44,471 nucleotides of DNA from an uncultured archaeon. GTDB lineage: Archaea; Aenigmatarchaeota; Aenigmatarchaeia; QMZP01. This document shows, one piece after another, positions 1,629 through 44,471 of the stretch (position 1 is its first letter; each line of letters starts with the position of its first letter). The position numbers and the translations under genes are program-made. The stretch spans positions 1 through 44,471 of the forward strand of contig CAZCSS010000002.1 of NCBI GenBank assembly GCA_964501515.1, in the 5' to 3' direction. Below the pieces are notes generated by a model that was not told the origin of the DNA, did not search any database, and was given only the letters and a program-made list of their open reading frames with translations.

Positions 1629-1630
1629 AT

Positions 1631-10861: not shown

Positions 10862-11668
10862 GTGTGCGTGACTAGAATACTCGGGGTTGTTTCTGGAAAG
10901 GGTGGTGTGGGAAAGACCACGCTTGTGGCCAATCTGGGAGCAATTCTTGCCAACCACTTCAGGAAAAGGGTCATTGCAGTTGACTGCAACATATCAACAT
11001 CCCATCTCGGGCTTTATCTTGGAATGTATTACTATCCTGTTTCGCTGAACCAGGTGCTCAGTGGGGAGGCGCAGATAGAGGAAGCAGTATATAATTACAG
11101 CGTTCCGGGGATGCAGATTATTCCGGCCTCGCTGTCAATGGACGAGCTGAGGGGGGTTGATGTTTCCATGCTGAAGAATGTCATAAAGAAGCTTTTTGGG
11201 AAAGCAGACATAGTTCTTCTTGACGCTGCTCCGGGCCTTGGAAGGGAAGCCATGGCGGCCATAAGAGCGAGCGACGAGCTTGTGTTCGTAACAGTTCCGT
11301 TTGTTCCGCCCATAGTGGACATAATAAAGTGCGGGCAGGCGGCAAAAGAAATGGATGCGAGGCCGCTCGGGGTGGTCCTGAATATGACCGGGGAAGGCAG
11401 GCATGAACTCACTCCTGAAGAAGTGGAGCAACTTGTGGAGCTTCCTGTAATAGCCAGCATACCAAGGGACAGGGCTGTCTTGAGAAGTTTGTCTGCAAGA
11501 GTGCCTGTAATGGATATCAGTCCGAGGTCACCTGCCACAAGGGAGATAATGAAGCTGGCCGCATTCATTATAGGCGAAGACTACAGAGAGCCCGGGATGA
11601 TGAGCAGGATAAAAGGGATTTTCAGGCGAAAAAGCCGGACCGAGAAGGTCCTGGAAGTCAGGATATAG
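10862..11668 (+). CDS. minD: MinD/ParA-family (SIMIBI) P-loop ATPase, archaeal MinD-like, 268 aa
   Basis: Deviant Walker A at the extreme N-terminus (VVSGKGGVGKTTLVANLG). Walker B-like hydrophobic strand plus Asp (ADIVLLDAAPG). Length and layout are typical of MinD/ParA. The C-terminal basic amphipathic tail (MMSRIKGIFRRKSRTEKVL) resembles a MinD membrane-targeting sequence. Start is GTG at 10862, with an alternative GTG at 10868. Confidence 0.9.
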   Translation: MCVTRILGVVSGKGGVGKTTLVANLGAILANHFRKRVIAVDCNISTSHLGLYLGMYYYPVSLNQVLSGEAQIEEAVYNYSVPGMQIIPASLSMDELRGVDVSMLKNVIKKLFGKADIVLLDAAPGLGREAMAAIRASDELVFVTVPFVPPIVDIIKCGQAAKEMDARPLGVVLNMTGEGRHELTPEEVEQLVELPVIASIPRDRAVLRSLSARVPVMDISPRSPATREIMKLAAFIIGEDYREPGMMSRIKGIFRRKSRTEKVLEVRI

Positions 11669-12148: not shown

Positions 12149-12167
12149 GATTGTTTTGTGGGGGTTT

Positions 12168-12179
12168 GATATAAATATC
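12168..12179 (-). promoter_or_regulatory. TATA-like box for the NUDIX gene
   Basis: The minus strand reads GATATTTATATC followed by 19 nt and then the ATG at 12148. This spacing fits a leaderless archaeal transcript. Confidence 0.4.
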
Positions 12180-12260
12180 AGCAAAGGAATAATATTATAT
12201 TAGTTCTGATGCGCTGCGGCTTCCGCGGCCTGTCCCCTTTCAGATGTGGCCTCTGTGTGG

Positions 12261-12417: not shown

Positions 12418-15400
12418 CTAACTGAGCTTTCTGTTTATCTCAGCCAGCCTGGTTTCGGTTCTTTTCTTCAGGCTGTTATATGCCTCCTGTGATATTATGC
12501 CCTGCTTGCGCTGCTGCTCCAGAAGGTTGAGCATTCTCTCAAGGCGGTTCTTCTCCACCTTCAGTTTCTCGCTGTCATCCTCCCTCTTCACAGAGGAGGT
12601 AAGCTTGCCTATTTCCGTTGTCCTTCCCCTTATAAGCGTCTTCAAGCTCGTGCTTATTCTTCTTATGTAAATCACAAGCATTGCAACAACTATGCCGAAC
12701 GCTATTATCAGTGCGAGCCACCATGGAAACACAAAGAGATTCGGCGCTGTTGAGAGAAGATATTCTGCCTTGTCAAGCAGGTTCCATCCGGCATATATGG
12801 CATCAAGCGCATCCTCGTACCTTTCATCAGAGAGGTATCTCTCGGCCTTTGATATCTGCTTCTCTATCTCATCAACAAGCAGGAGGACATCTGTAAGGTC
12901 TTTGATGTTTCTGGCATTGTCCACCTTTATCATAAACTCGTCCAGGGCATCCTTGAGCCTTTCAAGCTCATAATGCACCAGCTCCTTCATGGACGTGAAT
13001 ATCAGCAGGTCAAATGTTTTCTCGTCCCTTGAATCACCGGAAACAGCTGCTATTATCACCTTCCTTTTCCCTGCCTTTGTTCCTCCTGGAACAAGTATTC
13101 TGAACGTGAAGACTGTTGTTTCATTTGGGTTCAGCAATGCCACTGACTTGGGGCTGATGTCATACCACTCCGGCGGGATTCCAGACACTTCAAGCGTGAC
13201 ATTGGTCAGGTTTGTCCCTCCGGGATTTCTGACATGTATGTTGGGGAACCTGGCAAGACCAACCATAACCGCTACCTCGGTGGGGTATTTGGAGATTTCT
13301 ATTTTGGGCGTGGGCGGCGCCCCCCCACCTCCGGCAGGTGCAGCCGGGCCAGTCGGTCCGGGTCCGGGAGGTCCGGGCGGGGCCCCGCCTGGAAGGACCT
13401 TGAATGTCACACTTGTTTCTGACCCTGCATCGGTGAGGGTGTCATTTATGGTTGCATGGAGCGTGTATATTCCAGGCGGCTGGTCAGAGAAGATAAACAC
13501 CCTCGTCCCTGGAACAGTTATGTTCTGGCCTGCGGGGGTATAGGTGGGCTGGGCATCAGGAAGGGAATACCAGGTCTGGCCAGCACCCTCTACCCAGTAT
13601 CTGAGGTCAACGTCTCTCCCGTATTCTCCCTTGTTGTCAATAATAAGATTGAAGTTAAACCACTGACCTTGCTGAACCTCGGCCGTGATGAGTTCTATCC
13701 TGAGGTCATAAGGCCCCCAGGCAGCTATGCTGAACGCCCTGCTGGCCACGGTATGCAGGCCGCCTTTTGTAGCCTTGAGAACAGCCCAGTAGTCTCCTGA
13801 CTGGATTGTGGTTCCCATCACATAGCTGACCAGATAGCGTCCTGTGGAGTTCTTGTTCATTGCAGGGTTTCCGTTCGTGAGATTGGTCTCAAAAAGTACA
13901 TTGCCCAGTATGGGGTTTCCGTAGTAAACAGTCATGTTCATTGTGTCAGGATCAATGGGCAGACCGGCAGCGTCCTTTACCAGAAGGTCAAACGTCATTG
14001 TGCTGTTCGGGAACCAGACGTCCCTGGTCACAATCTCGGCGTCCATGCCAATGCTGTCATACACATCAAAATAGTTTGTTGTGGTATCAGTCACATTCCA
14101 GGGAACAATATTATCATAAAAAAGCGAGTGCGTGGTTATGGCGTATCTGCCTTCAGGATAATCTGATTTTATGGTGAAAAGGTCGGGGTACGGCGAACTT
14201 GCAGGTGTTCCATTCTGGTTGGTTGTATAGGTATTGTTTACCAGAACATACCCCGCCGGGTCTGTTATGGTTACTGTTGCGTTCACGTTGCTGAGATTCT
14301 CATTGTTCATGTCCATTACATGGTATCTGAGCGTGACCGAATCGCCTGTTTTGTATACAGGCTTCCCTGTGGTAGACGTCACTGCGAGATCAGCATATAT
14401 CCGTAAGGTCTCATTTTTTGTGGTGTTGACACTGCTGTTGTCCTGGATGAAGATGCTGACTGTGTAGTTGCCTCTTAGGATGGTATTGCCCCATACATCT
14501 CCGAGGTAGTCAGGGTATGCCGTCGTCCAGTAGGATGTCCCTGAAACCTGGCCGCCGTTGTATTGAAGTGTGTGATTGCTCACATTTCCATCAGGCCGAT
14601 AGACATATGCCATAATGGTGCAGTTCACGGGCGGCGGACCCTCATCATCACATCTGATGGGATTCCCGGAGAGGCTGGTTACTGTGACATCTATATCCAC
14701 ATTGCTTATCTGCTGTGTGATGTTCGGGCTGAGAACTATGATAATATTGGCCTCTATTTGGGGGTTGAGGGCCACGAAAAGGAACCTCTCTCCAGGAACA
14801 GAGTAGTTATAAGTGGCATTGATGCTGTAGTTCGAGTATTGCCACTGCTTGGGTTCGCCCTGACCCGTTATGTCAAAATACACTGCAAATATGTGATAAT
14901 CTTGCTTTGCAACACTGAAATTGGTGTCTGTTATGTAGGTGTAGTTTTCATACAGCGGGGTTATGTTAAAATTGAGCAGCATATTGCCCGTGTTGTTCAC
15001 GCTCACATTGCACACTATTCCTGTATCCTCATTCTGGAAGCGCTCGCAATATTCAGGAATCATCACCCAGCTCCCGTTCTCCGGGACTGTTATGCTTAGG
15101 TTTATTATGTGATAACCATTGTTGCCAGTGGTTACATTGATGCTGCCGTTGTAGACCCCCGGATCATGGCCTGCAGAAGCGGTTAGATTGGCCGACACAA
15201 TTATAACATCACCCGGGCTCATGTTGAAGGGAAAGTCAGGGGTGAAGTTGAAGGTAAAACCAGCCATGCCCGTTATGGTGTAACTCACGTTGATTATCTT
15301 GGAGTTGCCGGTGGAGTTCAGGGTTATGTTTCCGAGAAATGTTGTGGTGTTATGCTCCATGGTGTCTGTGAACTGATTCTCCGGAACCAGAAGTATCACG

Positions 15401-18297: not shown

Positions 18298-18320
18298 AAT
18301 AAATAATTAATCAAACCATG

Positions 18321-18329
18321 TAATAAAGC
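18321..18329 (-). promoter_or_regulatory. Possible internal TATA-like box in the 39-nt spacer before the 1,959-aa gene
   Basis: The minus strand reads CTTTATTAC at about -32 to -24 relative to the ATG at 18297. The spacer is otherwise A/T-rich (TTGATTAATTATTTATT directly before the ATG). This could equally be a co-transcribed spacer. Confidence 0.3.
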
Positions 18330-18336
18330 TTCGATA

Positions 18337-20079
18337 TCAGGCACCAAACCCGAGCATTTTCCTTGTCTTTTCGTATGCCTCCCGGCTGATCAGGCCCTTT
18401 CTAAACGAGTTCTCAAGAGCCTGCAGCATTCCATGGTTCTGGGGGTGCCCTGCCGGCCGGGTCTTTGTGGCAACTGGTTCGGAACTCGCGGGCTTCTTCT
18501 CTGCTATAGCATTTTCTTTCGGCATATCCTTCTTCGCATCATCCGGTTTGCCTTTTTCCTCTGATGCTTCTGGTACGGGTTTTGGCCCGGGTTGCATTTT
18601 CCCTGGTTCGGGCTTTCCTGACACGGCCTGTCCGGGTTTTTCAGAAGGCTTTGTCTTGTCATTCTTCATGGCTTCGGGTTCTTCTGGCTTTTTTGTTTTT
18701 TCGTCCTCTGGCCCGGTCTCTGAAGCAGATGGGGATGCTTTGCCGGCAGCAGCTGTTTCCTCTGCCATTATCTGCTTCTCTATATCTTCAAGCCTCTTCG
18801 TGTTTATTTTCTTGGTCTTCTCATAATCTGCCTTGCTTATCTTCTTGGACGCAAGCTGTTCATCAAGCATTGCAAGCAGGCCCTCAATCTCTTCTCTCTG
18901 GGTTTCCAGTTGCCTGAGTTTTGGAGATTTTGAAGAAACAGCGTTACCTGCCCCCCCGGAGGATGCGACCTCAGCAATCCTCTGTTCAACTGTGTTTCTG
19001 AGCATTTCAAGGTCCTCCTTTGAGGCAAATCCCTCAATCTTTGTATTTATCTCCTCAAGAGACTTCATGGTCTCCTGGGAAAGTTCATCCAGGGTCTGCT
19101 GCTTTACCTTGTAAAACATGAATTCTTCAAGTCTCTTGTTAAGCTCTATGAAGATTGAATTCACCCTGTCAGCGAGTTTGGTTATCTTGGCCTCCCTGTC
19201 ATCGATCTCCTTTATCTTGGCCGCCAGACCCTGACTGAACCTGGCCACGTTCTCCAGGCTCCCGAGATCCTTGAATGCGTCCTCTATTGTAGTTACCTTC
19301 TTTATCAGCATGGAAAGCATGTCATCGATCTTGTCCAATCTGGCCTCATGGGTCTTGATTTCGGTTTCCTTTCTCTGCAGGTCTCTGACAAACTGGTCAG
19401 TTTTGAGGTATTTCATGGTGGAGATTGCTTCCTCCATCTTTATCTCCTGCTCGCTCATCCTGCTTTCGAGACTGTTCACGCCCGAACGCAGCTCCCCTAT
19501 CTCCTCCATAATTCTTCTTATGTTTTCCTCTGTGTCTGTTTTTTCATCCTTGATCGCATCAACAAATGTCCTGAGCTTTTCAAACTGTATAGCCAGCTTC
19601 TCGAGTTTTTCTCCAATGCCAGAGGTTTCGGGCCTCAGCTCCTTAACAAATTTCTGGAGGACATCCTGCAGGTCTTTTACAGAAAGGGTTTCAGAAGGCT
19701 TTCCTACAGGGAGGGTTTCAGAAGGCTTCTCCTCGAATTTCTCTTTTTTTTCCTTTCCTATTTCAATCCCTGCAATACTTTCCTCCTCAACAGGTTGGGA
19801 GACCGGAATTTCCATTTCAGCAGCAATCATTTCCCCCACAGTCTTGGGTTTCTTCTCCTCTTTCTTGGGCCTGCCGCCTTTCCTGGATGTCTCCCCTGCC
19901 TTGCTGCTCATCTCATTTATTTTTTTTTCAATCTCCTGGAGGGATTTCTCGTTTTTTTCCTTAACTTCCTTGTAATGCTCCTCTGTTATGCTGGCATCGT
20001 TATATGCTTCTTCAAGCGTCTTCAGGAGCGTTTTGATGTCCTCTCTCTTCTTCTCCAGTTCCTCAAGCGTTTCAGCCAT
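18337..20079 (-). CDS. Cytoplasmic coiled-coil protein, 580 aa, with three SHOCT-like motifs and two E/K/P-rich disordered spacers
   Basis: The ATG is 9 nt after the TAA of the giant gene. There is no signal peptide or TM. The central region (about aa 140-370) is heptad-like helix. SHOCT-like motifs are LLKTLEEAYNDASITEEHYKEVKEKNEKSL (N-terminal), LLAMLDEQLASKKISKADYEKTKKINTKRL (middle) and MLQALENSFRKGLISREAYEKTRKMLG (C-terminal). Confidence 0.87.
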   Translation of the reverse strand: MAETLEELEKKREDIKTLLKTLEEAYNDASITEEHYKEVKEKNEKSLQEIEKKINEMSSKAGETSRKGGRPKKEEKKPKTVGEMIAAEMEIPVSQPVEEESIAGIEIGKEKKEKFEEKPSETLPVGKPSETLSVKDLQDVLQKFVKELRPETSGIGEKLEKLAIQFEKLRTFVDAIKDEKTDTEENIRRIMEEIGELRSGVNSLESRMSEQEIKMEEAISTMKYLKTDQFVRDLQRKETEIKTHEARLDKIDDMLSMLIKKVTTIEDAFKDLGSLENVARFSQGLAAKIKEIDDREAKITKLADRVNSIFIELNKRLEEFMFYKVKQQTLDELSQETMKSLEEINTKIEGFASKEDLEMLRNTVEQRIAEVASSGGAGNAVSSKSPKLRQLETQREEIEGLLAMLDEQLASKKISKADYEKTKKINTKRLEDIEKQIMAEETAAAGKASPSASETGPEDEKTKKPEEPEAMKNDKTKPSEKPGQAVSGKPEPGKMQPGPKPVPEASEEKGKPDDAKKDMPKENAIAEKKPASSEPVATKTRPAGHPQNHGMLQALENSFRKGLISREAYEKTRKMLGFGA

Positions 20080-20088
20080 GCTTTATTT

Positions 20089-38000: not shown

Positions 38001-41000
38001 CAGTGTCTGCTGTCACATCAAACTGCTGGGATGGCTCTGATTCTGAAGAGTAATTGAACGGGTGATCGGTTGCATTAAACTTTATTTCGTTTGTTCCCAC
38101 ATCAGAGCAGGAGAAGTTCACGAAATCAAAATTCATGGTCTTCGGATTGGCCTGGTCATCAGAGCAGGGGTCGCATTCCTTCTGGTCAAGAAGCTCCCAG
38201 TCATCCCATACACCAGGGGAGAGCTCAACCCTTTTCCAGAGATAGACCGTGACTGTGTTATTGTCCAGGTCATAGACATCAATGCTGAAGTTGAAGTTCT
38301 TGCCCCACGGGCCTGAAGGGAACTGCTGAACCTGGGCATTCTGGAGCACTGGCCGCGAGGCTAGATAGAAGGTCTCAGGGAAGGTCACGCTCGCATTCGG
38401 ATAGAATTCCTTTGAGGTGTTTATGGTTATGTTGTACCACTTTCCGTATTCAAATCCCGGAAGTGTGGTGTCACCCACCGTGGCATTGTACCAGCCTGAA
38501 CCATTGCCAGTGCCGTAATATATGTACTCTGATGTATAGGGCATCCCGTCTATATGGGCTACGGTATCTGCTCCCGGAACCAGGCCGCAGTTCTGAGCCA
38601 GGTCTGTGACATTGAATGTGATATTGAATGTGCTTCCCCTCAGTATGCTCTGGTTAACAGGATACCATAATTCAGGCTCGAATTCAGAGGTTATATTCAG
38701 GTAGTAGATGGCCGTGTCGTTTGTCGGTTTGTAATAGTTCTGTCCGGGATCTTCCACAAGTCCGACCCTCCATCTCTGCACGCCCACGCCATACGTGCAG
38801 CTTCCATCGGGGTTGAAATCCAGCTGCAGTCTTCCGAGAGAATCAGTGGTGTCCGGGGTTCCGGCATCCCAGGAATTCTGGTCAGAGGCGTTGGTGGTTA
38901 TCCAGAACATCCCGGGCGCGTTTGTGGCATTCGGATTTGATGGATTGTCTGAATCATAAACCCTGATGATCAGGGTAGTGGAATCCGATCCCACCCTGTT
39001 CACAACAGAATTGTTGCCCTGAACATAATCAAATCCCACATCGTCTCTCTCCACAGTAATGTTCACTACAGGTGTCTCGGAGTATCCGAAATCGTCCATG
39101 GTGGTGTTGAATTTTATGGAGATGTTGTCTCCTATCCTGCTGACACCCCAGACCTTGGACAGATTTATAACAACATCTGTCCCGCTTGTCTGGTTCTGGG
39201 CCTCGAATGTCCAGTCGCCCGAAGGGAGGATTTTCCAGTAAAGTCTGGTTGTTATGGTATCAAGGTCCTCGTCTGTGGCATTCACAGTGAAGTAAAAGGT
39301 CTCGCTCCATCCGCCGACCTTGGGAGTGGCGTTCGCATCCTCCAGAATCGGGTTGGTCTCAACCCAGAAGGAAGTCTCGTCAAGGACGAATATTTTTGTG
39401 ACAGAATCATTGTTGTAGTTTGGCCTGGTGCTGTTCATGGTGAAGTTGTATGCCCTGGTTTCCCAGCCTGTTGTGTTCAGGGAGCAGTTGTAGTACCCGT
39501 TGCTCTCATTTGTAACATTGTCCCCGGTGCAGTAATACTTCCCTCCGCTCTCGCTCGTGAATGTGAAACTCACAACAGAGTCATTTATCGAATATCCGCA
39601 CCAGGAAGAAACATTCGCCCTTATGGTGAGGTTCTTCTCCCTGAGGATTTTGGTCCCGTTCGGGATCTCAATCTGATTTACCAAATCGCCTTGGATGAAG
39701 ATGGTGTAGTTTTCCAGCGTCCTGTTGATTTCATACCGGTCGTCAGTGGTCTCTGCATACCAGAGCTGTTCTGCCACAGAGTAATCGCAGTCCGGATTGA
39801 AGAAGAAATTCGAATGCCCCGAGCCGTTCGTGTAGACAAGTGTTCCGTTATCAAAGTTGGAGTCATTGTATGTGACGTAAAATGTCACATTCATGCCGCT
39901 CGGATATTCGTTTTTGTCTGTGTCATATATTCTCACCACAAGCGTAGTGTTCTGGTCATAACTTCTGTTGACATGCGCCTCCTGGCCTCCTGTGTAGTTC
40001 CCGTAATTGAATGTTATGGAGACATTGTCCTCCTCAAGATAAGGTCCGGTGAAGTTGCTCGTCCAGTATGTATTGAAGGTGTCATTTATCCTGAACGTGT
40101 AGTTAGTATAACCCATCTCACCTGGCGTGAAATCTGAAACCTGAACTGAGCAGTTTCCCCCGCCGTCATATACAACATCATATCCTCTTTCCACAAAACC
40201 CAGGGACGTGTTGGTGTAAAGCGTGCATGTGACATTGTCCCAGTCAGGATCATCTATTGTTATGTTGTATGTGTACGTGGCACCCCAGCCGTCCCTTGAA
40301 GGGGTGACGTTCTCATTTGATGAGAGGGGATCTCTGTTCTCAAGCCAGAACCTGTAAGGCCAGGATGTGGTGTTCCCGTTGTAGAAGACCTTTGTGGCTG
40401 TTATATTTATTGACCAGTTGCCTTCGGGCTGCCATGAAGAATTCCATGTGCAGTTGTAATCACCGTCGCCCTCGTCGTGCGGTCCCCCGTAGGAGCATCC
40501 TGAGGTGTTTCCACCCAAGTAAAGGACGAGGTTGTTGTTCACTCCTGATATGTTGCCCTCCTCAGCATAGCAGTCGCTGTAAACCGTCCAGTTGATGAGC
40601 ACATCATCCGTGACGTTGAAGCTTGACTGATCAGGGGGCTGGTCAAGGGAAAGCTTGAGCTGGCCGATTACACTAAAGCCCTGTGTGGTGGAGTTCTCAT
40701 CATCATAACACTGGTCATCAATCACACCTGCCTTCCAGTAGAGGTTGTCCGCAGAATAGTTGCAGTCGGGGTTGAAGGTATAGTTCAGATACCCGCTGGA
40801 GTTAGTGACCCTTCTCGTGCCGTTGTCCTCATCACCAATGGTGTTGAGACTGATCCATACTGACCCGTTCACGCCCCCTGGAACAGGCTCGCCTTTGTCA
40901 ATATCATTAACCTGCACCACAAACAAATCAGTATCTCCGCCCTCTCTGTTGACCTCTGTGCTTTGGGTGTAAAAGTTCGTGAAGGATACGTTGTCCTTCT

Positions 41001-44000
41001 GCAGAGTGAATGTAACTTCCTGGGTATCGTTTGTGTATCCGAAACTGTCATTGGCAGTGAAGTAGAAATAACCCACACCATTGAGATAATCCTGGCATGT
41101 GAATATATGATAGAATGTTGTGTTCTCCCATGAGCATCCGCTAACATAATTGGAATCTATGTATGTCCAAGGCCCTCCTGACTGATTGGATACCCAGAGG
41201 GAAATGTTGACAGTGTCTGCCCCCATGTCTTGGTCGCAGTACTCAACCTTGAAAGTGAAATTATACCCCCAGCCCTCAAGATTCGTATCTATAGTGGGTT
41301 CTCTTAGCTGCGGCTTCACAACCAGCCTGAGCGCGTCATCTTCCTGGTCAAAGCCCGGGGAGTAGGAGTAGTTGCTTGAGTTCACAGTGATGTAGTGGAG
41401 CCCTATGCTGCCCTCCCCGCTGGCCCATGTGGCATTGTAGGTTCCGTTCTTCCAGTCATAGACGCTTCCAGGATTCCATGTACCTGATATGCGGAAGGCA
41501 ACCGAGATGTTTGCAACAGGGCCGCAGTCATCCTCAACCTCACCCCATATTGGGACATTGGTTCCGCGCAGGAAAGGCACTGTCCCTGTGGGATAGGTTA
41601 TGTTGTTTGCAAGACTGCCATTGATTGTAAGGTTATATTCTGTTGAATTTACATTGTAATAACATATCGGGTTGTCACTGCTGAAATCGAGCCCCACCTT
41701 CCATAACTGATCGCCCACATAATATTTTGGTGAAGAACACCCGGGGTTGAAGTCGTAGGTAAATGCAGAGGAGGAGTTTGTGGTATTGAAATATCCGTCA
41801 CTCCATTTGCTCCCGTCAGTAGTCACGTACAAATAGCCGTTCTTTCCTCCAAGACCCACTGTTCCTCCGGTATAGTTGTCATAGGCCTGAACCGTCAAAC
41901 TCGTGGCATTGCTTCCGATCCTGCTCACATTCACATTGTTCCCTGTGAGAACAGAGAACGTAACATTTCTTCTCAGGACTTCTATCTGATCATCCCCGCC
42001 AGTGGTGTCATTTCCTCCGTAGTTATCAGAGATGTTTATCAGATAATACCATGTTCCGTTGGGGTTGGTGTCTTGGCAGGAGGTGTGGATTGTGGTAAGA
42101 AGAACCTGCTGGTTTATGCAGTCTGTGCAGGTATCCTGATCAGAAAGAATCCAGCTCCCCGGCGAGCCCTTGGATTCCCAGAGATAGATTGTTACGGTGT
42201 CATCATCGTCCGTTATATTAACCGTGAAATTGAATCTGGACTTTTCAGGATTATCCCCCCACGGCAGGGATGTGGGACTTACTCCGTAATAGTCTATTAC
42301 AGGCGCAATTTCGTGGAAGAACATGTCAGGATAGATTACGCTGTGAGGGTTGTAGTAAACCCTTGAGGCGTTCATGTAAACCGAGTAGTTTCCGCCCGGG
42401 TTGCCTGTGACATCCCATGAGCAGTTGTAATATCCACTGCTCTCATTATTCACAGGGACGCACTGCTCTGTAAAGGAGTCGTGCTGAACAGTATAGTTCA
42501 CATTGGTATCATTTATGAGAACACTGCACTCATCGCTCACATTCCCCCTTATGGAGACATTCTCATTGTCATAGCACACCCAGCCGGCCGGGCAGCTCAC
42601 GTTGGAGATATTCAGGACCATGTCTCCGTATATGGTCATTGTAAAACTGGATGTTGTGTTTTTGTCTTCATAGCAGAGGTTGTCATATGTTCCTGCTTTC
42701 CAGCTTCTTTCGCCCGGGGAATACATACAATCAGGATTCACTATGAAGAGGCCGTATCCTGAAGCATTGGTCACATTGCTCCATCCATTGTCGTAATTTG
42801 TTCCGTTATAAGTCAGCCAGAGCGTGACATTGTTGTCCTGGCTGATATAGGTCAGGTTGTCGTCATCATACACCCTGATTATCATGTACGGGGAACTCCA
42901 CTGGTCTCCTGACCTGTTCACTGTTACGCCTGAACCTCCCTGAATGACAGAGATTGTGACATTGTCCTTCTCCACAAGGAAGGACTTAGCTGTTGTGGTT
43001 GCTGAACCCCCTGCACCATCAGAGGCATTGAACCTAAACCATCTTGTCTTATTGGCATCAGCGCATGTATGATAAACAGAAACATTAATGAAGAGCGGGT
43101 TGGCGCAATACTTGCATTCGCTTGTGTTCAGAAGAGTCCAGGGTCCTGAAGAAGAATTGCCTTCCCAAAGCCAGACAGTGACGTTGTCGTTGTCGACATC
43201 CTCCACTTTTACAGTGAAATTGGTAAGGGCGCCCCACCCTTCAGGGAAGACCTGGTCATGGGAGAGGAGAGGATTGTTGTTCTCATATGACTTGAGGAAG
43301 AACACATCCTCTCTTAAGGTGGAATTGGGGTTATAATACGGAGGGTTCTCTGCATAAACCTTGATGTCATAATAACCAGTCGGGTCCTGTTTGGTGGTGT
43401 TCCATTGACATGTATAGTTCCCGGGGTTCTGCTCTTCCAGAGGAGACGGTCCGCAGGTGTAATTCACGCTTTCATTGAATATCAGGGTTACATTAACATC
43501 TGCCCCGCTTATCATATTTCCGCACTCATCCGTGAGGTTCACATAGACGGTTATGTTTTCCTCCTGATGGTAGGAGGTGTTGTCTGTCCAGGGATAAGGC
43601 TCCAAGAACCCGATAATCGTGACATTATACACTCCTGATTGGCCGAACTTGTAACAGGCCTCGCTCTCATCTGTGTATCCTGTCCAGTTCTGCAGGCCGA
43701 CCTCATATTCACAGCCCGGTGAGAACTCATAAGTTGCATAACCGCTGCTGTTTGTGAGATTGTAGCCGTCTTTTGTATAGTTTGAGCCCGAACCGTTTAT
43801 GGTGATGTTGAAGGCCACCTTCATGGCCGGGTTGTAGGCCTCCTGCTGCCTGTCAGTGTCATTTACAAACAGCGTGAGAATCGCGGTTCCGGATGTCCTG
43901 TTGACCTGGGAGCCGTTGCCTGCTGCATAATGAATTTCTATGTCCTGCTTTTCCATAATAAAGGTGTTGTCATTGTCCGCATAATCCCCGTTCACAACAG

Positions 44001-44471
44001 AGGTTTCATAGCTGTTCTGGGGATTGGCATCGTCAGTGGCATTGAACTTGAAGTAAAAGGTGACCTGGTCCTGACCGTTCAGGTCACTGCAGGAATAACT
44101 CTCATTCCAAGCCAATGTTGTGTTGTCGCAGTTGGTGCACTGCTTGTTTCCGTCAACCTGTGTCCACTGGCTCTGGCCTGAACGCCTCCTCCAGAGCTGC
44201 GCCGTTACCGTGTCGCTCTCCTCCTCGCTCACATTCACGGTGAAGTTTCTCTGGAAAGACCATCCATCCTGTCTCGGTGTGACATTGGCCTCCTTGAGTC
44301 TGGGAGCTATTTCCAGATAGAATGCATGTATAGGGGATGTGACATTCGGGTAGACGTAGCTCTTCTCATCGCTGTAGTAGGTGTTTTCCGTTGATTCTGT
44401 CGCATTCATCGTGATATTGTACCATCCGCCGGGCTTTCCTCCTGTTGTAGGCCAGTAGTGGCGATAGAATC
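20089..44471 (-). CDS. Giant modular cell-surface protein fused to a C-terminal TM helix and cytoplasmic HerA/FtsK-like ATPase; 5' end lies beyond the window (at least 8,126 codons visible)
   Basis: The track gives 8,106 aa from the ATG at 44409. However, the frame stays open to base 44471. The upstream residues (..FYRHYWPTTGGKPGGWYNIT-MNATESTENTYY) continue a motif (GWYN-h-T ... YY) that recurs through the array, so the true start is upstream. There is no stop over 24.38 kb. The protein is a highly repetitive beta-rich modular sequence with N-x-S/T about every 15 residues (7 in the first 107 aa by my count). The stop is TAA at 20089..20091. Confidence 0.9.
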   Translation of the reverse strand, partial: FYRHYWPTTGGKPGGWYNITMNATESTENTYYSDEKSYVYPNVTSPIHAFYLEIAPRLKEANVTPRQDGWSFQRNFTVNVSEEESDTVTAQLWRRRSGQSQWTQVDGNKQCTNCDNTTLAWNESYSCSDLNGQDQVTFYFKFNATDDANPQNSYETSVVNGDYADNDNTFIMEKQDIEIHYAAGNGSQVNRTSGTAILTLFVNDTDRQQEAYNPAMKVAFNITINGSGSNYTKDGYNLTNSSGYATYEFSPGCEYEVGLQNWTGYTDESEACYKFGQSGVYNVTIIGFLEPYPWTDNTSYHQEENITVYVNLTDECGNMISGADVNVTLIFNESVNYTCGPSPLEEQNPGNYTCQWNTTKQDPTGYYDIKVYAENPPYYNPNSTLREDVFFLKSYENNNPLLSHDQVFPEGWGALTNFTVKVEDVDNDNVTVWLWEGNSSSGPWTLLNTSECKYCANPLFINVSVYHTCADANKTRWFRFNASDGAGGSATTTAKSFLVEKDNVTISVIQGGSGVTVNRSGDQWSSPYMIIRVYDDDNLTYISQDNNVTLWLTYNGTNYDNGWSNVTNASGYGLFIVNPDCMYSPGERSWKAGTYDNLCYEDKNTTSSFTMTIYGDMVLNISNVSCPAGWVCYDNENVSIRGNVSDECSVLINDTNVNYTVQHDSFTEQCVPVNNESSGYYNCSWDVTGNPGGNYSVYMNASRVYYNPHSVIYPDMFFHEIAPVIDYYGVSPTSLPWGDNPEKSRFNFTVNITDDDDTVTIYLWESKGSPGSWILSDQDTCTDCINQQVLLTTIHTSCQDTNPNGTWYYLINISDNYGGNDTTGGDDQIEVLRRNVTFSVLTGNNVNVSRIGSNATSLTVQAYDNYTGGTVGLGGKNGYLYVTTDGSKWSDGYFNTTNSSSAFTYDFNPGCSSPKYYVGDQLWKVGLDFSSDNPICYYNVNSTEYNLTINGSLANNITYPTGTVPFLRGTNVPIWGEVEDDCGPVANISVAFRISGTWNPGSVYDWKNGTYNATWASGEGSIGLHYITVNSSNYSYSPGFDQEDDALRLVVKPQLREPTIDTNLEGWGYNFTFKVEYCDQDMGADTVNISLWVSNQSGGPWTYIDSNYVSGCSWENTTFYHIFTCQDYLNGVGYFYFTANDSFGYTNDTQEVTFTLQKDNVSFTNFYTQSTEVNREGGDTDLFVVQVNDIDKGEPVPGGVNGSVWISLNTIGDEDNGTRRVTNSSGYLNYTFNPDCNYSADNLYWKAGVIDDQCYDDENSTTQGFSVIGQLKLSLDQPPDQSSFNVTDDVLINWTVYSDCYAEEGNISGVNNNLVLYLGGNTSGCSYGGPHDEGDGDYNCTWNSSWQPEGNWSINITATKVFYNGNTTSWPYRFWLENRDPLSSNENVTPSRDGWGATYTYNITIDDPDWDNVTCTLYTNTSLGFVERGYDVVYDGGGNCSVQVSDFTPGEMGYTNYTFRINDTFNTYWTSNFTGPYLEEDNVSITFNYGNYTGGQEAHVNRSYDQNTTLVVRIYDTDKNEYPSGMNVTFYVTYNDSNFDNGTLVYTNGSGHSNFFFNPDCDYSVAEQLWYAETTDDRYEINRTLENYTIFIQGDLVNQIEIPNGTKILREKNLTIRANVSSWCGYSINDSVVSFTFTSESGGKYYCTGDNVTNESNGYYNCSLNTTGWETRAYNFTMNSTRPNYNNDSVTKIFVLDETSFWVETNPILEDANATPKVGGWSETFYFTVNATDEDLDTITTRLYWKILPSGDWTFEAQNQTSGTDVVINLSKVWGVSRIGDNISIKFNTTMDDFGYSETPVVNITVERDDVGFDYVQGNNSVVNRVGSDSTTLIIRVYDSDNPSNPNATNAPGMFWITTNASDQNSWDAGTPDTTDSLGRLQLDFNPDGSCTYGVGVQRWRVGLVEDPGQNYYKPTNDTAIYYLNITSEFEPELWYPVNQSILRGSTFNITFNVTDLAQNCGLVPGADTVAHIDGMPYTSEYIYYGTGNGSGWYNATVGDTTLPGFEYGKWYNITINTSKEFYPNASVTFPETFYLASRPVLQNAQVQQFPSGPWGKNFNFSIDVYDLDNNTVTVYLWKRVELSPGVWDDWELLDQKECDPCSDDQANPKTMNFDFVNFSCSDVGTNEIKFNATDHPFNYSSESEPSQQFDVTADTVWYTIQSGAGDPSLNREGDDTAYFSVLVQDFDRNYEDLKAGYNGTFLVTTDGNSWGSEINTTTNGTGYLNLDFNATCEYTYGAQKWSAGIKYDKCYNPVGSMTSNETFHVIGQLKLNLYSPVQGDTYNVTDQINISLNITTDCPAQEGLQNQTYITIQLLSPNTSWLTCEPVINETGSREGWYNCTWDSSDQREGYWGIQINASKTYLNDNNTFFSQWFWLENLNATYSDMSVTPASDGWTREYTYTVNITDPDSDRINCSLYIDKYNGQGWTYKGMQTLYDPNGINNQQCSVTIHDFTGEDIGDNVFKFFIQNGEPSNYYNTSNVSGPHLEPSNVTLEFITQNNTKVNISGDSELLAVRVNDTDNASQGNWFPSGVNVTFWVYFNESGHDQGNLTATNATGYANVFFDPNCSYSVGPQLWFAGTTDNYYDPENTPENLTIIIMDDLNINMDSPLGEEYLRGTNVTFRFYVNDSCGNNITGIPDINITMISQLNGSYYYCGGTIEEGNGWYNCTLNTSGMAARGYDLMITVNKTYYNPGNLTLYYSDTQNNSFFIETTPVLTMPMINSSYDGANSGSWSESWNHSVRVTDEDGDSVTVTFYKRKWNPGSGWGSWEEIYPNSCGGDCDQSIVFAWEQGYPNDPTEYDPSTDLGTWQFKMNATDNADSPKPGGTSYSYEILGYNYTVEKDDMNITLYDGDGAFIWRNGSDSYTLSVQVRSVDQNNRLLSAGEANATVWVTKDHAIYGNITTFGTFTNSPGGFINKSFDPDSGCEYSVGIQKWIIGIHNNTEFKDLNSSEYTVEIWSYLNMTINTPDGEAYPIETGSNVPINYTVFDECGDGTAAINYTRITLAGTSTYYVENGSVADNGDGTYSHNWSTMSPEKASGWYNITIEALSDYYAGINKTRNNSFVLGYRPDITYDAYPPLSNVYSSTGDGGWGETWTFKVRCRDRDDTAGFNISLWKRKTPASDWELLDIQSCSSWPGYITKTFTINDFGCSDITPTGENSSFKFNASDQWNFTDETYPFNFTIVSDNVSLTVVDGYDTDINREGNIIQILSVQVNDTDRGADVNVSSGVNGTFYVTTNGSEYNTSYTNQTDFSGMLRYSFNPGCDHRYGNQKWLAGIYNDKCYSPRNSSESPIHVIGQLKLNLYSPVQGDTYNVTDQINISLNITTDCPAQEGLQNQTYITIQLLSPNTSWLTCEPVINETGSREGWYNCTWDSSDQREGYWGIQINASKTYLNDNNTFFSQWFWLENLNATYSDMSVTPASDGWTREYTYTVNITDPDSDRINCSLYIDKYNGQGWTYKGMQTLYDPNGINNQQCSVTIHDFTGEDIGDNVFKFFIQNGEPSNYYNTSNVSGPHLEPSNVTLEFITQNNTKVNISGDSELLAVRVNDTDNASQGNWFPSGVNVTFWVYFNESGHDQGNLTATNATGYANVFFDPNCSYSVGPQLWFAGTTDNYYDPENTPENLTIIIMDDLNINVTGPVGDTSYYKGDNVTINITITDNCGNNISGVNLNISAVSDQTGETFYCQNVYYEGNGKYNCTFNSSELRAGWLDLYVKANKTYYNANTTYVDNSFWLETVPVLTMVGVTPTVSGWGSYFNFSVNVSDEDGDDVRVYAYQREYGETSWGSPLLGPGGNYYAECYNCNTTNTITFTKGDFSCNDLSNNDTSLREFKFNATDDPPGPSDTDETPTENFTLTKGEVRIDHFYGNDTYIYRPSGSETLVVRLFDVGRNEYVKTPGQQTEFFVTQNGPGSSEISSGYRYSDGSGFANYTFDPGCSPKYSVGPQTWRAETVGSQCYLDNQSDTWNLTIWTDPLDVNMTIPDGEHYRRGIDNITMRMYVSDDCESEGTGAVTNATMTLKAEGPCSYTCSNYIDEGNQGGPAGWYNCTFADYDTQNWPVPSCIGWYNTTAIAQKAYYNDSSLTVDNDSFYFSTPPEIRWDSPVWKTSSPSEGWGATHTFRLRVRDYETSTDDVLNLTLWRSNTTSPYNWVLVENRNFTTYNGDNEILETFSHNFSCPDIGTNYFMIDVTDKWGDYNETTVNNFDLLKDRTAAYCNPGSGSCAPDRVVIREGGDSLQITAYFVDLDYGYTTVGSGVNGTVWITVNGSGTGSWDSGHFNSTNPSGDLIVHFDPNCTPEYKPGIQEWKAGVTGDECYYANANSTPINLTINGSLRVYLELPEQGNETAVGNPVNTTFNVTDDCGTMVNQTTSTITYISPTGSPESYTPFDLGNGWYNYTLDTSLHEGGWWDIMINTSRIYHSSNSTLWEDRFFLNNTPPEVGNFSVDPPAEGWAMTFTFNTSVRDQQQDNVTCILYTSTDGGSTWVYKNETIVYGGQGNCSLLATFDCTDIGSDNQYKFWLDDGTLGNDFNTTAQSGYTIEPQNASIYYIFGNESNVTRTGYNTTLLIVNATDDDLGAPVPAGHNITFWVTWNSSDPDSWQAGNITQTNSSGYANYYFDPSCDVNPYYRTGPQRWKAGISDQCYQNANLTEQLELNIYGNLEILITSPEIGHNYSRGEENATIQFNLKSDCGVGIDADLATAYLINENNETEYECYVDPLGAGLYECTRNTTGMLARWYHTEVNTSRTYYFNATNATYYHFFVYTNPVLSGEYAQKDPVGWNETQIFYVNITDEDLDNVTINLYVKDMEPEAPSWSLQNTTEVAGPNNTQIALEWRNQLFCELGNWSYYFEAIDKRSNIDETNPHNFTLEKDDIRVEYSFGNMSEVWRNGTGSIPLVLRLIDNDSNDTLAGGRNAHFWSTTNASDPDSWDEGTDAFTNGTGHITYNFIADAPRQNCNYTVGTLRWKGGTRGDSCWKDQNSSDYFVLLKSNLNPVILLPNSTGYLLNQYITLHGYLEDDCRPVENATITWKVISGRNQYTCTNQTELGGGYYNCTWRADYTGWYNATMKSAKQYYGENTTMKIDAFHVGYEPYIDKFKIEQVQPSLPFAYWDMAAGWGEYYKFTARVIDPDGDSNNITLWMSENRENWTLINYTYDSGKTIYNPVFWQRFSCPDIGKRYFKLRSTDDLNYWDDSNYDPTASQQEEPFVNTTVVNNKIIHSSGGGNYTILNISELIHDSSATPDTGFNYTEDINESGYLEFFNVTIENLNGGDMYLNLTVNSLLLAENQSLSDGQNFTIDAVQAGAAFALPGNQTINLSIGTDSGSPLGANYRAYLEYAVLDNGFVHTETISVSGIMDYFNITVQNKKGSAMHFNISVNGYLVAENHSLSDGQNFTIDAVQAGASFNMPSDDDTIPKNQTVILSVSNGSGGGDYSAYNVYLNYTAGVRILYIQPDNVTVSLQTSDTEVRRLGDDYANLTFRIQDTDFLNTYPDGVNGTVWVTEDHNNYTVSLDCDSSSGYCRVYYNASCSSLTGVQKWIGGSTDSCYQMINTSPASLDVYGQLYTEPYHPYGGEVLNRNMTYNLNISVLDDCTNFINTSNVTWFNQTWDVISTTNGTSASFYNSTWNISYNYPLGPETIKINSTLSYHDFGYNTTGIYIYGWSGLGLIYPENYTNVISGTNVSVTCHVSDLNLNQPIANYTVNVYNNNTLNLSTETNQTGYVTWLWATGQETPGWYEIKCNITDNSTLYYNDSVTAIYSLILVSRPLIIDDILVGNQSIHRNDSYTPYETNITVHVRDANVGNASGANVSFFNSTGLIGNCTTNGTGWCTIDTPYNPVDDAVPNNYTIYINATKPGLEDSETVKTNITVKGVLTTEIVKPENNTFVSKNSIQNFSAWVYDEMGINTTTTVNWYNETDWLASGNDTQIYLLYQSTGNRTFKAEATREFYDNGIDYVTLKLGGLADVYWISPPNLSIMEYPLSFNYTCRVLDGESFTPIENYPVEVWYNDTEWTYVGTFPTNQTGYVTQEFTPSQKGNVTFICNITDNESMELSANINNATALIFVRDVYPPEFSNVSIVPNTSIEAWLNTTNITSDVTDDTAVDTVTASITMPNQSVVNLTMANFTDTTYRVQYLPPIGGLYNVTIYAWDSPPESNMNSTFAGNFTVWGKSYGWINQTEEILVYGITQTDNFEFDMEINFTSTGPAHMYYVNLTSFDDPNNTLIINDTFEECGNMSANTSCIWDLHVEVPAGTPPILIKLYVNATWTNPDRTVNTTQNVTNLPVAENPILNITEEMIYNVTPNGEETYVGSFTVGATGNDAVENVQLSLVGGNFGVECPTCNIILIPTNWGYLHAGSNFTVDVTANISLGQDPGTYWTLMRATSDNAEYDEAVINMSVPVNSTWTQSPATFGTFLAPINTNGTVGKIQVNNTGNIKIAFRIYKTQNGSGLVFLSDEYFELGKQLSKTVNVTYLVPGSQPEGMYYVQLLTRNSSATPQERVVDFWLNVTDIPPNITDVVFNPMIFEMYYEQVNISANITDNFVVSHAWVEAVRPNDTFYINESKLIHNATDPDQGFNYTEQIGTNYTTTMLFFNITVQNINGTAMYFNLTINGLLLAENQSLSDGQNFTIDAVQAGTSFILPGNQSINLTIQNQSGSPANASYLTYLSYSVQDQNHLSFDMNNTYAPTYLSSYSSEINGTHMLRICANDTMGLLSCTQYYEITAASSTPIDIILNVTQVNITNITIYWGESFDIAINITPAWARAFNISSNITLPLNWSASPDYFFFGDLLKYTSGQNQSRITVANGTAPGNYTVNVTANWTNMDNTTAYNLTGILVNVFSNPAMEFLDENITTIIAANATANATTILLSTGNVNVTNITLWCDDSGNSTPYFCENFSVHLTPDWVPVLESGQNASVNITISVPGTYPAGTYNTTIRANSSENVSAWIELFLTIPQNISWTQLPENLTKEVIQGTTGELGTIEIHNTGNAPVRLGVTYWGNIFGFGYAWFNDNTPVDVEMNDYYDFYVNYSAPVVYSKYTYSGYIKTQNTSGNPPERISLVNMTVHPYFVNVTSPTSSNPKINVNASDQIDVIAYVNYTTEPVTGGVEFAVIMSNSSTSIPITLNSSTYSPSNGYWVLSFQAPNVSQEGAFGLNVTANYTNTSITNISLVLSDFEHDSIVYFDPNPPDIDLYVPPLIPANTTAVITANITEGGGVQSVAGEITFPNTTTYPYDFIYVSSSGIVHTYKLYLNDTSQLGVYAVNVTACDKSGNCNTTNTSFEIYPSVNFQGIAEDIEKPYVAPLNVTFDFYGNGSSTLIINVTSDPDTGYYNATIDGRNYDIVTRIWNDTFTTYNTPLLADVYNPYTFGSINRMKIGNGPIRNGVLIRTAMNSSSFNITMDYSQSADMFTIDNLALYKCDSWKQYTRCNGTWTRLASTIDVINETVTASDTTLGDVYVLAQFICGDGTCEASYGESTTSCPSDCPLPTPQPPPPPSAGGGGGGAAMVAPPGMPSVPVEIKSTLIFVTLEQGEFEIHSVEILNNRDTMIQAKTRVEGNVWELVQIEKPEMNISGKDTGILKVKLYALPTTPPGIYTGDIITEIVSRNITHRTPVTVRIERTPEPLLDVKVRVLTKAIEPGGNLTFELTLINMGETASINDIVAEFKVKRLSDEKLMYMTKETLAVDQVKTMKHQISLPEDIPYDRYTLEANVTYWNGRKAAIAVDTFDVIELPPVLVALRNIFWFWGTYLILFAILPSFYIGRRAYMYYKEKTAKKARYIFPMDFKKLPQPGPNTFPVGKIAETDVVAYWDMQQLRMHGISAGSTGSGKSVSAMVCAEELLKRKIPVIVFDPTCQWTGFLRPCRDPKMLKLYPKFGLKPTDARRFKGRIVQVEDPNMDIDIRNYMNPGEITVFLINKFEPAVLDGFVRKTISDIFKIPWPEATSLKCMIFYDEVHRLLPKYGGKGGYVALERGCREFRKWGIGLWLISQVLMDFKGAIRANISTEIQLRTKYTGDIRRVKEKYGFNYAATITKLKTGTGQVQNAEYNDGKPYFIEFRPLLHDTGRLSDKDIAEYIKYDKEIAELERRTKALKDRKIDTTDIEFELKLAKDKTRQTMFTMAKTYIDSVKKRLEKAGG
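20314..21114 (-). other. HerA/FtsK-superfamily (DUF87-like) P-loop ATPase domain at the cytoplasmic C-terminus of the giant protein
   Basis: Walker A GSTGSGKS at 21010..21033, verified on the DNA (ggc tcc aca ggt tcg ggc aag tcg). It is followed by ...LLKRKIPVIVFDPTCQW, which parallels the HerA G-x-TGSGKS...h-h-h-D-P-h-G-E-Y layout. Walker B is CMIFYDEVHRLLP (about 20638..20661). Next is RKWGIGLWLISQVLMDFKGAIRANISTEIQLRTKYTGDIRRV, matching the HerA pattern RK-x-G-h-G-h-h-h-h-[ST]-Q ... h-Q-h-R. Confidence 0.75.
21217..21276 (-). other. Single transmembrane helix separating the extracellular body from the cytoplasmic ATPase of the giant protein
   Basis: Translation gives IFWFWGTYLILFAILPSFYI, followed by GRRAYMYYKEKTAKKAR (positive-inside rule puts this side in the cytoplasm). 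This is the only strongly hydrophobic segment I can see in the visible protein. Confidence 0.8.
21949..22107 (-). other. Cys-motif (CGDGTCEASYGESTTSCPSDC) plus Pro/Gly linker (PLPTPQPPPPPSAGGGGGGAAMVAPPGMPSVP) at the base of the giant ectodomain
   Basis: Read directly from the reverse-complement translation. The Cys-motif is at 22045..22107 and the linker at 21949..22044. Confidence 0.8.
24584..24645 (-). repeat. Conserved roughly 60-nt core (encodes LAENQSLSDGQNFTIDAVQAG), copy 3 of 3
   Basis: cctgcctgaacagcgtcaatggtgaagttctgtccgtctgaaagggactggttttcagcaag. It is nearly identical to the cores at 28277 and 28571, while the surrounding roughly 90-aa domain is much more diverged. Confidence 0.85.
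28277..28335 (-). repeat. Conserved roughly 60-nt core (encodes VAENHSLSDGQNFTIDAVQAG), copy 2 of 3
   Basis: cctgcctgaacagcgtcaatggtgaagttctggccgtctgaaagggaatggttttcagc. Confidence 0.85.
28571..28632 (-). repeat. Conserved roughly 60-nt core (encodes LAENQSLSDGQNFTIDAVQAG), copy 1 of 3
   Basis: cctgcctgaacagcgtcaatggtgaagttctggccgtctgaaagggattggttttcagcaag. Confidence 0.85.
33560..34586 (-). repeat. Near-identical intragenic direct repeat, copy 1 (1,027 bp, one full three-domain module)
   Basis: It aligns base for base with 36653..37679 at an offset of exactly 3,093 bp. By eye I find a single mismatch (34573 a versus 37666 g, synonymous). The identical shadow ORFs in the track (33585..33776 = 36678..36869; 33919..34215 = 37012..37308) confirm it. 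Confidence 0.9.
36653..37679 (-). repeat. Near-identical intragenic direct repeat, copy 2
   Basis: Same evidence as copy 1. The encoded 342 aa (IGQLKLNLYSPVQGDTYNVTD...ENLTIIIMDDLNIN) occur twice in the protein. Flanking sequence on both sides is diverged. Confidence 0.9.

Follow-up and report, generated by a model that had tools for sequence, protein, structure and literature searches.

What does a protein do that ends in an ATPase inside the cell and carries several thousand residues outside it, and with which of its neighbours does it work? The question is posed by a stretch of 44,471 nucleotides from an uncultured archaeon of the Aenigmatarchaeota (assembly GCA_964501515.1, contig CAZCSS010000002.1, positions 1 to 44,471), referred to here in its entirety as the window. 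Three genes are at issue: one for a giant protein, one for a coiled-coil protein of 580 amino acid residues (M580) and one for a second membrane protein of 1,959 residues (S1959). Homology places the giant protein in the published SPEARE family, a group described from Nanohaloarchaeota as giant, mostly extracellular proteins in which a single transmembrane (TM) helix, close to the C-terminus, leads to a conserved intracellular region (Hamm et al. 2019, PMC6642349). With a probability of about 0.6, we consider the locus to be an Aenigmatarchaeota-type version of the SPEARE surface apparatus of DPANN archaea, in which host contact would be coupled to the ATP-driven movement of macromolecules. 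SPEARE membership, a recurrent MinD gene and the fact that the giant gene runs off the window go beyond the initial annotation, which had been made from the letters of the DNA and had proposed a three-gene surface module.

The giant protein as a SPEARE homologue

In a blastp comparison with the C-terminus of NAR1_1133 from Ca. Nanohaloarchaeum antarcticus (query from Hamm et al. 2019, supporting Fig. S18), residues 416-1848 of this SPEARE fragment aligned colinearly with residues 6660-8101 of the giant protein at 27% identity (E 8e-117). The 1,508 alignment columns span the NEW3 modules, the glycine-rich linker, two beta-sandwich domains, the TM helix and the whole ATPase. The source contig of the query, NAR1_11, was recovered and is our locus L086. 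The best matches to the window proteins were found in metagenome-assembled genomes (MAGs) of Aenigmatarchaeota. Published examples of the family are NAR1_1133 itself (5,998 aa), a protein of Nanopetramus SG9 (8,553 aa) and SVXNc_0300 of Nanohalococcus occultus (9,409 aa) (PMC6642349, PMC10266531), and SPEARE expression in culture has been reported (PMC6642349). The topology given for NAR1_1133, a TM helix at 5611-5633 followed by a cytoplasmic part at 5634-5998, and that of a short form of 717 aa, in which the TM helix spans 323-345 (Hamm et al. 2019, supporting Table S2, PMC6642349), mirror the giant protein of the window and its homologues of 722-730 aa, respectively. The 2019 study had already recorded homologues from Aenigmarchaeota, Micrarchaeota, Woesearchaeota and Altiarchaeales (supporting Table S3, PMC6642349), and the giant protein is a further member of a known family.

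The cytoplasmic part consists of a HerA-like ATPase and helices and of nothing else, as seen with AlphaFold 2 (AF2) and Foldseek. The ATPase is recognized by Pfam DUF87, the HerA central domain (28.9 bits vs a cut-off of 23.2), and its AF2 model has a mean confidence (pLDDT) of 91.4. The Walker A (GSTGSGKS), Walker B (YDEVH) and REFRKWG motifs are invariant in an alignment of 43 homologues; by its sequence this is a catalytically intact P-loop domain of the HerA/FtsK type. The top Foldseek match was the hexameric HerA of Sulfolobus (4d2i, E 1e-12), with HerA complexes, the coupling protein TcpA and the FtsK motor as further neighbours (E 1e-12 to 1e-8). Common to the domain and the HerA/FtsK ring translocases are the RecA-like P-loop fold, both Walker motifs and a conserved arginine-rich motif after Walker B. 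The sequence itself is distant from all curated models of HerA, VirB4, Tra and Ced: NCBIfam HerA models reached 15-17 bits vs cut-offs of 800-970, and the best NCBIfam match, CedD, covered only the P-loop with 27.5 bits vs a cut-off of 600. A scan of viral contigs for the ATPase returned no matches.

Architecture separates the protein from its structural relatives. HerA proper has an N-terminal HAS-barrel and the partner NurA, whereas the giant protein has neither; its TM helix directly precedes the ATPase, and a family search of the window proteins detected no NurA. FtsK is anchored by an N-terminal polytopic domain and coupling proteins by two TM helices, in contrast to the one TM helix that here leads to an ectodomain. 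The Ced import system of Crenarchaeota offers a likeness, being an archaeal case of a membrane-associated HerA-like ATPase implicated in the intercellular movement of DNA, but its polytopic proteins CedA, CedA1 and CedA2 have no equivalent at this locus, whose architecture is wholly different.

Outside the membrane, the super-repeats of the distal stalk (Table 1) share 22-37% mutual identity, and each is modelled as three beta-sandwich domains of the macroglobulin (MG) or immunoglobulin (Ig) type. An AF2 model of a super-repeat, derived from the repeats of the window alone, was all-beta (pLDDT 86), and its best Foldseek matches were the MG domains of complement C5, CD109 and alpha-2-macroglobulin and the giant adhesins SiiE and 6xi3. 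Strings of such domains are known from giant Ig-repeat adhesins (SiiE, MpIBP/'large adhesion protein') and from the MG arrays of alpha-2-macroglobulin and complement. Unlike in the latter, no thioester or bait region was detected in the stalk; the bacterial giant adhesins are substrates of type I secretion systems without a cytoplasmic motor, whereas the giant protein has its ATPase. The distal part also differs from that of the SPEARE of Nha. antarcticus, a glycine-rich beta-helix or 'toxin-like' region, in having at least 15 triple-beta-sandwich super-repeats of extreme sequon density. No protease, toxin or nuclease domain was found in the giant protein with Pfam, which does not exclude membership in the family, as Reva et al. 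(2023, PMC10266531) argue that such domains are not truly part of it. Of the adhesion-type domains reported for SPEARE proteins, laminin-G had no Pfam match at E<=0.01 in the ectodomain, where Ig, MG and NEW3 beta-sandwiches are found.

Towards the membrane follow NEW3/CARDB modules (Pfam NEW3, PF10633, 28.1 bits vs a cut-off of 24.4), a cysteine-rich knob, a Pro/Gly linker, two beta-sandwiches, the TM helix and the cytoplasmic domain. The linker named in the initial annotation, CPLPTPQPPPPPSAGGGGGGAAMVAPPGMPSVP, was recovered at 21949..22044. The giant protein contains 519 sequons vs about 146 expected, 3.5-fold over composition, all of this excess lying in the predicted ectodomain; the cytoplasmic part of 374 aa has a single one. 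S1959 behaves likewise (116 vs about 33 expected, with 0-1 in the tail), so that sequon enrichment is confined to the predicted ectodomains of the two proteins and is an independent signal of topology. The giant protein is predicted to display at least 7,700 residues of N-glycosylated beta-sandwich beads, some 70 domains, which if extended would make a fibre of a few hundred nm.

The gene has zero in-frame stops from 44409 to the end of the window, and the residues upstream of the listed start (..GGWYNIT-M..) carry on the repeat motif; the gene is therefore truncated at its 5' end by the window. A giant protein without a signal peptide was considered and rejected as an artefact of the window edge, the N-terminal signal lying beyond it. 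Within the gene, an exact in-frame direct duplication of 1,013 bp (33560-34572 = 36653-37665, offset 3,093 nt) has sharp borders, outside which identity drops to background. A very recent duplication would account for it, as would gene conversion between super-repeats or an artefact of the assembly. Word-indexed protein searches with the 700 N-terminal residues of the giant protein gave 16 fragmentary matches and with the head of S1959 a single match, the candidate lists being saturated by asparagine-rich words; neither search returned a full-length relative or a deep alignment.

Partner genes and a shared cytoplasmic motif

Species-representative genomes were scanned with two peptide patterns. 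At least 567 ATPase loci were found in Aenigmatarchaeota, Micrarchaeota, Nanoarchaeia/Woesearchaeota, Altiarchaeota and 'Nanohalarchaeota', falling into 356 clusters at 50% identity. Neighbourhoods were mapped in 85 loci by phmmer searches of the ORFs within 8-kb flanks. A gene of the M580 type lies downstream on the same strand in all 77 loci whose downstream DNA extends to 1.5 kb or more, across several DPANN phyla, and is no more than 150 nt from the ATPase gene in 63 of them; in 28 of the 79 pairs scored the gap is at most 2 nt or the stop and start codons overlap. Genes of the S1959 type occur in 49 of the 65 loci with at least 4 kb downstream, usually encoding 1,900-2,050 aa and in minimal loci 325-344 aa. 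Archaeal MinD was seen in 21 of 65 loci, and the 8-kb flank sets a limit to this count. In the 21 pairs in which MinD comes directly after an M- or S-type gene on the same strand the gap is at most 36 nt, and the pairs M-S, M-MinD and S-MinD are tightly spaced as well. Archaeal MinD is a recurrent fourth component. The gene grouping proposed in the initial annotation thus has strongly conserved synteny among relatives, with the M580-type gene in 77 of 77 loci and the S-type and MinD genes tightly linked.

Size varies more than gene content. The ATPase ORF fills the entire 8-kb flank in 46 loci (at least 3,200 aa), and among the cluster representatives lengths go up to 7,852 aa; in the ATPase family a giant protein is the rule. 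At the other end stands a minimal four-gene form of 722 + 527 + 344 + 252 aa (L003, L079, L081, L085). Several MAGs carry two SPEARE-type loci (L043 and L081, L041 and L085, L048 and L082, L074 and L083). A minimal module of about 725 aa lies beside a giant one in L081, L085 and probably L082, which is cut by the contig end, with ATPase, M, S and MinD in one tight operon; both modules are giant in L074 and L083. The minimal forms make up one clade in a neighbour-joining tree of ATPase domains. In the hypersaline nanohaloarchaeal loci L089-L098 an M-family gene follows the ATPase at 12-40 nt (profile E 1e-21 to 1e-27).

Some members of the ATPase family deviate at the C-terminus. Sixty-five of them, about a quarter of the representatives, have an extension of 140-480 aa past the ATPase, which the protein of the window lacks. 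The extensions are acidic or Pro/Ala-rich linkers, and the two read closely (P0203 and P0228) also contain a repeated small domain with ..DYNHFADWI.GVFH... A fusion of the ATPase with an M-family protein was sought as a Rosetta stone and not found among the 65 members with C-terminal extensions above 120 aa. In L055 (8531/8658) and L098 (10116-10126) the ATPase is encoded in an ORF separate from that of the giant ectodomain; a frameshift or a sequencing error might account for this, or the two may be genuinely split.

M580 was described in the initial annotation as a soluble SHOCT coiled-coil adaptor without export signals. Its solubility is borne out, as it has zero hydrophobic segments and 0-1 sequons, and the labels 'SHOCT' and 'adaptor' hold in part. 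M-family proteins share a conserved motif of about 49 aa with the consensus ..LLKSLEEQYKEGKISKEEYEKAKEKN.KKL... A hidden Markov model (HMM) of this motif, run across all ORFs of the 85 loci, found 184 domains in 80 M-family proteins, three of them in M580, and matched the extreme C-terminus of 30 S-type proteins; in a separate search of the window proteins it matched that of S1959. The only further carrier among the 85 loci is a MinD paralogue with two copies in the Altiarchaeota locus L077. There (5378-6736) the 452-aa MinD paralogue fused to the two motif copies is followed by a plain MinD, and the S-type protein has just 596 aa. The shared motif is, from sequence comparison, the best evidence we have for a physical link between M, S and MinD. 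An adaptor role of M580 is favoured by its three copies and the one in the S1959 tail, but the motif is not in the tail of the giant protein itself.

The name SHOCT marks no more than a resemblance. The motif follows the pattern of SHOCT and SHOCT-like bihelical domains (PF09851; Eberhardt 2013, PMC3581485; Ravi et al. 2024, PMC11237479), being a short helical L..L...G.I[ST].EEY...K..L pattern that is cytoplasmic and juxtamembrane, C-terminal in S1959 and repeated in M580. It remains below the Pfam threshold throughout, PF09851 giving no match to M580 and 16.1 bits vs a cut-off of 27 for the S1959 tail. Three of 29 M-family members matched SHOCT below threshold (best E 7e-4), whereas GvpG was matched by five of 29. 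At about 49 aa the motif exceeds SHOCT in length, and it is module-specific. In other systems, SHOCT-like domains have been put forward as assemblers of sub-membrane complexes (PMC11237479).

S1959 was expected to share its membrane-proximal layout with the giant protein, and the two regions are indeed homologous and colinear. A profile built from 22 S-type proteins matched the giant protein at residues 6152-6555 (E 1e-48), 6699-7132 (E 4e-46), 7160-7260 (E 3e-10) and 7541-7702 (E 3e-13), and blastp of the membrane-proximal region of the giant protein against S1959 gave E 1e-20. From the colinear profile matches S1959 is a paralogue of the roughly 1,550 membrane-proximal residues of the giant protein, with a coiled-coil tail where the latter has its ATPase; residues 6152-7260 of the giant protein correspond to the middle part of S1959. 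S1959 is composed of a signal peptide, a head of about 430 aa, Ig/NEW3/MG2 modules, a Pro/Gly linker, NEW3, an extracellular helical region, the TM helix and a cytoplasmic tail (Pfam NEW3 9e-24, 83.8 bits in three stretches; MG2 6e-10). The head is conserved and family-specific, and searches of it against Pfam and PDB profiles gave weak Ig/filamin matches only. The signal-peptide-like segment predicted earlier is present (MKKRILVVVFITFAIALLLSYQPAHSQ), as are the Pro/Gly linker (LPGGAPPGPPGPGPTGPAAPAGGGGAPPTPK, 13306..13392) and a single C-terminal TM helix in each membrane protein, strong in S1959 and moderately hydrophobic in the giant. The sequon-rich module motif proposed for both occurs in both (giant residues 6261-6380 and 6815-6935, S1959 residues 966-1079), but its ending N-[IS/ST]-W-T-Q is found in the giant protein only, S1959 having NGSWVM.

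Gene layout of the window

The three genes are co-oriented, as first annotated, with spacers of 9 nt (20080..20088) and 39 nt (18298..18336). The M580 ATG is preceded at 13 nt by a GGAGG, within the 3' end of the giant gene. AT-rich sequence makes up the 39-nt spacer before S1959, and its TTTATTA, about 23-29 nt upstream of the ATG, might serve a leaderless S1959 transcript as an archaeal TATA box. Beyond S1959, a Nudix hydrolase gene (11669-12184, minus strand) separates it from MinD; the gene is not a conserved part of the neighbourhood, a Nudix being nearby only in L025 and L113. The small protein a215 had no family match in Pfam or NCBIfam and one hydrophobic segment (aa 139-157), and seven close relatives (L005, L014, L015, L017, L019, L020, L076) have a homologue next to their S-type or MinD gene. 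The region 1-9681 of the minus strand holds three tandem, very long coiled-coil genes without TM segments or sequons (X1267, Y1416 and Z), and in the closest relative, L005, a coiled-coil gene likewise follows MinD and a215. The motif HMM found no SHOCT-like motif in the three proteins, and the M-family profile, as a control of its specificity, did not match X1267 and Y1416. Pfam and NCBIfam returned nothing but generic coiled-coil noise for M580, a215, X1267 and Y1416. Listed plus-strand ORFs in 1-1950 have the look of antisense artefacts, and a tRNA scan of the window found none.

Table 1 Features of the window, with residue numbers of the encoded proteins and nucleotide positions
Feature	Residues	Position	Strand	Remark
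Giant SPEARE-type gene	at least 8,126 codons	20089..44471	-	open at window end; listed ORF 20089..44409 (8,106 aa)
Distal stalk of giant	30-5067	29209..44322	-	15 tandem super-repeats of ~330 aa each
Membrane-proximal ectodomain of giant	6152-7260	22630..25956	-	two copies of a ~400-aa NEW3/CARDB-type module
Cys-rich knob (CGDGTCE..CPSDC) and Pro/Gly linker of giant		21949..22110	-	kept in the 722-730 aa homologues
Two juxtamembrane beta-sandwich domains of giant	7488-7702	21304..21948	-	from alignment; S-family HMM aa 7541-7702
Single TM helix of giant	~7712-7732	21214..21276	-	moderately hydrophobic; RR..K..K..KK on C-terminal side
HerA/FtsK-superfamily ATPase of giant	7735-8106	20092..21207	-	~372 aa including three-helix C-terminal tail
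M580 gene	580 aa	18337..20079	-	soluble coiled-coil protein
M580 motif copy 1	7-54	19918..20061	-	SHOCT-like
M580 motif copy 2	390-437	18769..18912	-	SHOCT-like
M580 motif copy 3	551-574	18358..18429	-	SHOCT-like
S1959 gene	1,959 aa	12418..18297	-	signal-peptide membrane protein, paralogous stalk
S1959 TM helix	1860-1878	12643..12720	-	hydropathy 2.84; single strong C-terminal helix
S1959 extreme C-terminal motif	1911-1959	12421..12567	-	motif HMM E 1e-7
Archaeal MinD (b268)		10862..11668	+	TIGR01969, 222.1 bits vs cut-off 201.75
a215	215 aa	10134..10781	+	directly upstream of MinD; possible accessory component
X1267		5878..9681	-	long coiled-coil protein
Y1416		1631..5881	-	long coiled-coil protein; 4-nt overlap with X1267
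Z	at least 542 aa	start near 1628, off window start	-	third coiled-coil gene

A possible trans-envelope machine and its alternatives

How could these components work together? The giant protein would be exported by means of the N-terminal signal beyond the window and would cross the membrane once. By analogy with its structural relatives, the ATPase probably forms a ring, likely a hexamer, under the membrane and so would bundle several stalks, and the motifs of M580 and the tail of S1959 probably build a sub-membrane platform beside this ring, which MinD would position or pattern. Such a machine would work at contacts with the host cell and drive the movement of a macromolecule at the expense of ATP, with DNA as the best guess from the fold common to HerA, FtsK and the coupling proteins. 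That the stalk-ATPase, the M580- and S1959-type proteins and MinD form one DPANN-wide trans-envelope machine, assembled through the motif, positioned by MinD and moving DNA or another macromolecule between host and symbiont with a HerA-like ring, is a tentative proposal, possible but doubtful in this complete form. If true, archaea would have in the four-gene machine a counterpart to conjugation and Ced-type systems that relies on another membrane architecture.

A number of observations weigh against a SPEARE apparatus that moves macromolecules and against its four-part version. Identity between the ATPase and HerA is only about 15%, at a TM-score of some 0.5. The module contains no polytopic channel protein, and with a single TM helix in either membrane component no route across the membrane is evident. 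Contacts between M580, S1959 and the giant protein are predicted from sequence and synteny alone, and since the motif is missing from the giant tail, sequence supports the link of M580 to S1959 and synteny that of M580 to the giant protein. The MinD gene of the window is on the opposite strand, as it is in the closest relative L005, and the TATA-like element in the 39-nt spacer means that S1959 may also be transcribed separately. Among the nanohaloarchaeal loci, that of Nha. antarcticus (L086, contig NAR1_11, 11092-21089) has no M-, S- or MinD-type gene after the SPEARE gene, and within the flanks of the nanohaloarchaeal scan an S-type gene was found only in L109 and a MinD gene only in L113. 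The genes that follow in L086 are on the opposite strand and resemble, by eye, methionine aminopeptidase and malic enzyme.

The main rival is a housekeeping machine of the envelope or of cell division, in which the membrane-anchored ATPase, MinD and the coiled coils would, at division, segregate DNA or organize the envelope and a coiled-coil skeleton, and the ectodomains would form a cell coat. This explanation draws on the adjacent MinD gene, on weak matches of M580, X1267, Y1416 and Z to EzrA, SMC and CreS-like proteins, on minimal 722-aa forms that are nearly stalkless and on a family as widespread in DPANN as the loci and clusters counted above. Archaeal MinD proteins, however, are not known as selectors of the division site. 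The ectodomains also diverge fast, as seen in the fragmentary N-terminal matches and the exact 1,013-bp duplication, which makes them look like an interaction surface. Several copies occur per genome, with short and giant modules side by side in our loci and four SPEARE copies in Ca. Nanopetramus SG9 (PMC6642349), while the family is not in Ca. Nanohalobium constans, a cultivated, dividing nanohaloarchaeon (PMC10266531), and none was reported in Parvarchaeota (PMC6642349). Host interaction fits this patchy, multi-copy distribution better than housekeeping does, and we disfavour a division or envelope role as unlikely.

Less probable still is a 'straw' akin to a type IV secretion system, through which a VirB4/TraG ATPase would inject effectors into the host by way of the giant protein. 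It was proposed when the intracellular part of SPEARE was re-annotated as a VirB4/TraG-like ATPase with a coiled coil and a second VirB4/TraG ATPase was noted downstream in the strains studied (Reva et al. 2023, PMC10266531). In the window the downstream gene encodes a coiled-coil protein instead of a second VirB4, and neither the window nor the 85 mapped loci contain another component of such a system. TcpA is among the structural neighbours of the ATPase, but HerA and not VirB4 is the best structural match, and the weak NCBIfam P-loop matches to TraB, TraC and TraD stand beside scores of 11-16 bits vs cut-offs of 325-800 for the VirB4 and TraC/TraD models. A string of beta-sandwich beads, furthermore, has no obvious lumen.

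The original reading of SPEARE, with protease and toxin-like pore formers outside and a type III restriction enzyme degrading imported DNA inside (Hamm et al. 2019, PMC6642349), is very improbable: the P-loop domain does resemble helicase-type ATPases, but the cytoplasmic part comprises solely the HerA-like ATPase and helices and Pfam finds none of the protease, toxin or nuclease domains, a conclusion that Reva et al. had also reached (PMC10266531). Equally remote is the notion of three independent genes that are merely adjacent and alike through generic shuffling of domains (NEW3, CARDB, Ig) that archaeal surface proteins commonly have, since, for all the possible internal promoter before S1959, the ATPase-then-M order holds in 77 of 77 loci from several DPANN phyla, the stop codon at times overlapping the next start, the paralogy runs colinearly through some 1,550 residues and the shared motif is specific to the module.

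The preferred reading is therefore still that of a SPEARE apparatus working at host contacts. In the searchable literature we found no description of its partner set (M-type, S-type and MinD), of the private motif or of the four-gene minimal form, and no paper that joins DUF87 and DPANN. A large part of archaeal diversity falls to the DPANN, which rely on physical contact with their hosts, and SPEARE proteins are the main candidate apparatus for this contact. Discussion has so far treated each of these giant proteins singly, with its domain annotation in dispute. Behind the SPEARE-type ATPase there is almost always a specific coiled-coil partner, and a paralogous stalk and MinD are usually present as well. 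Partners with a private cytoplasmic motif, together with a minimal form, offer a tractable set of components and a handle on SPEARE function, and the four-gene minimal version (about 720 + 530 + 340 + 250 aa) would spare the expression of a 1-MDa protein.

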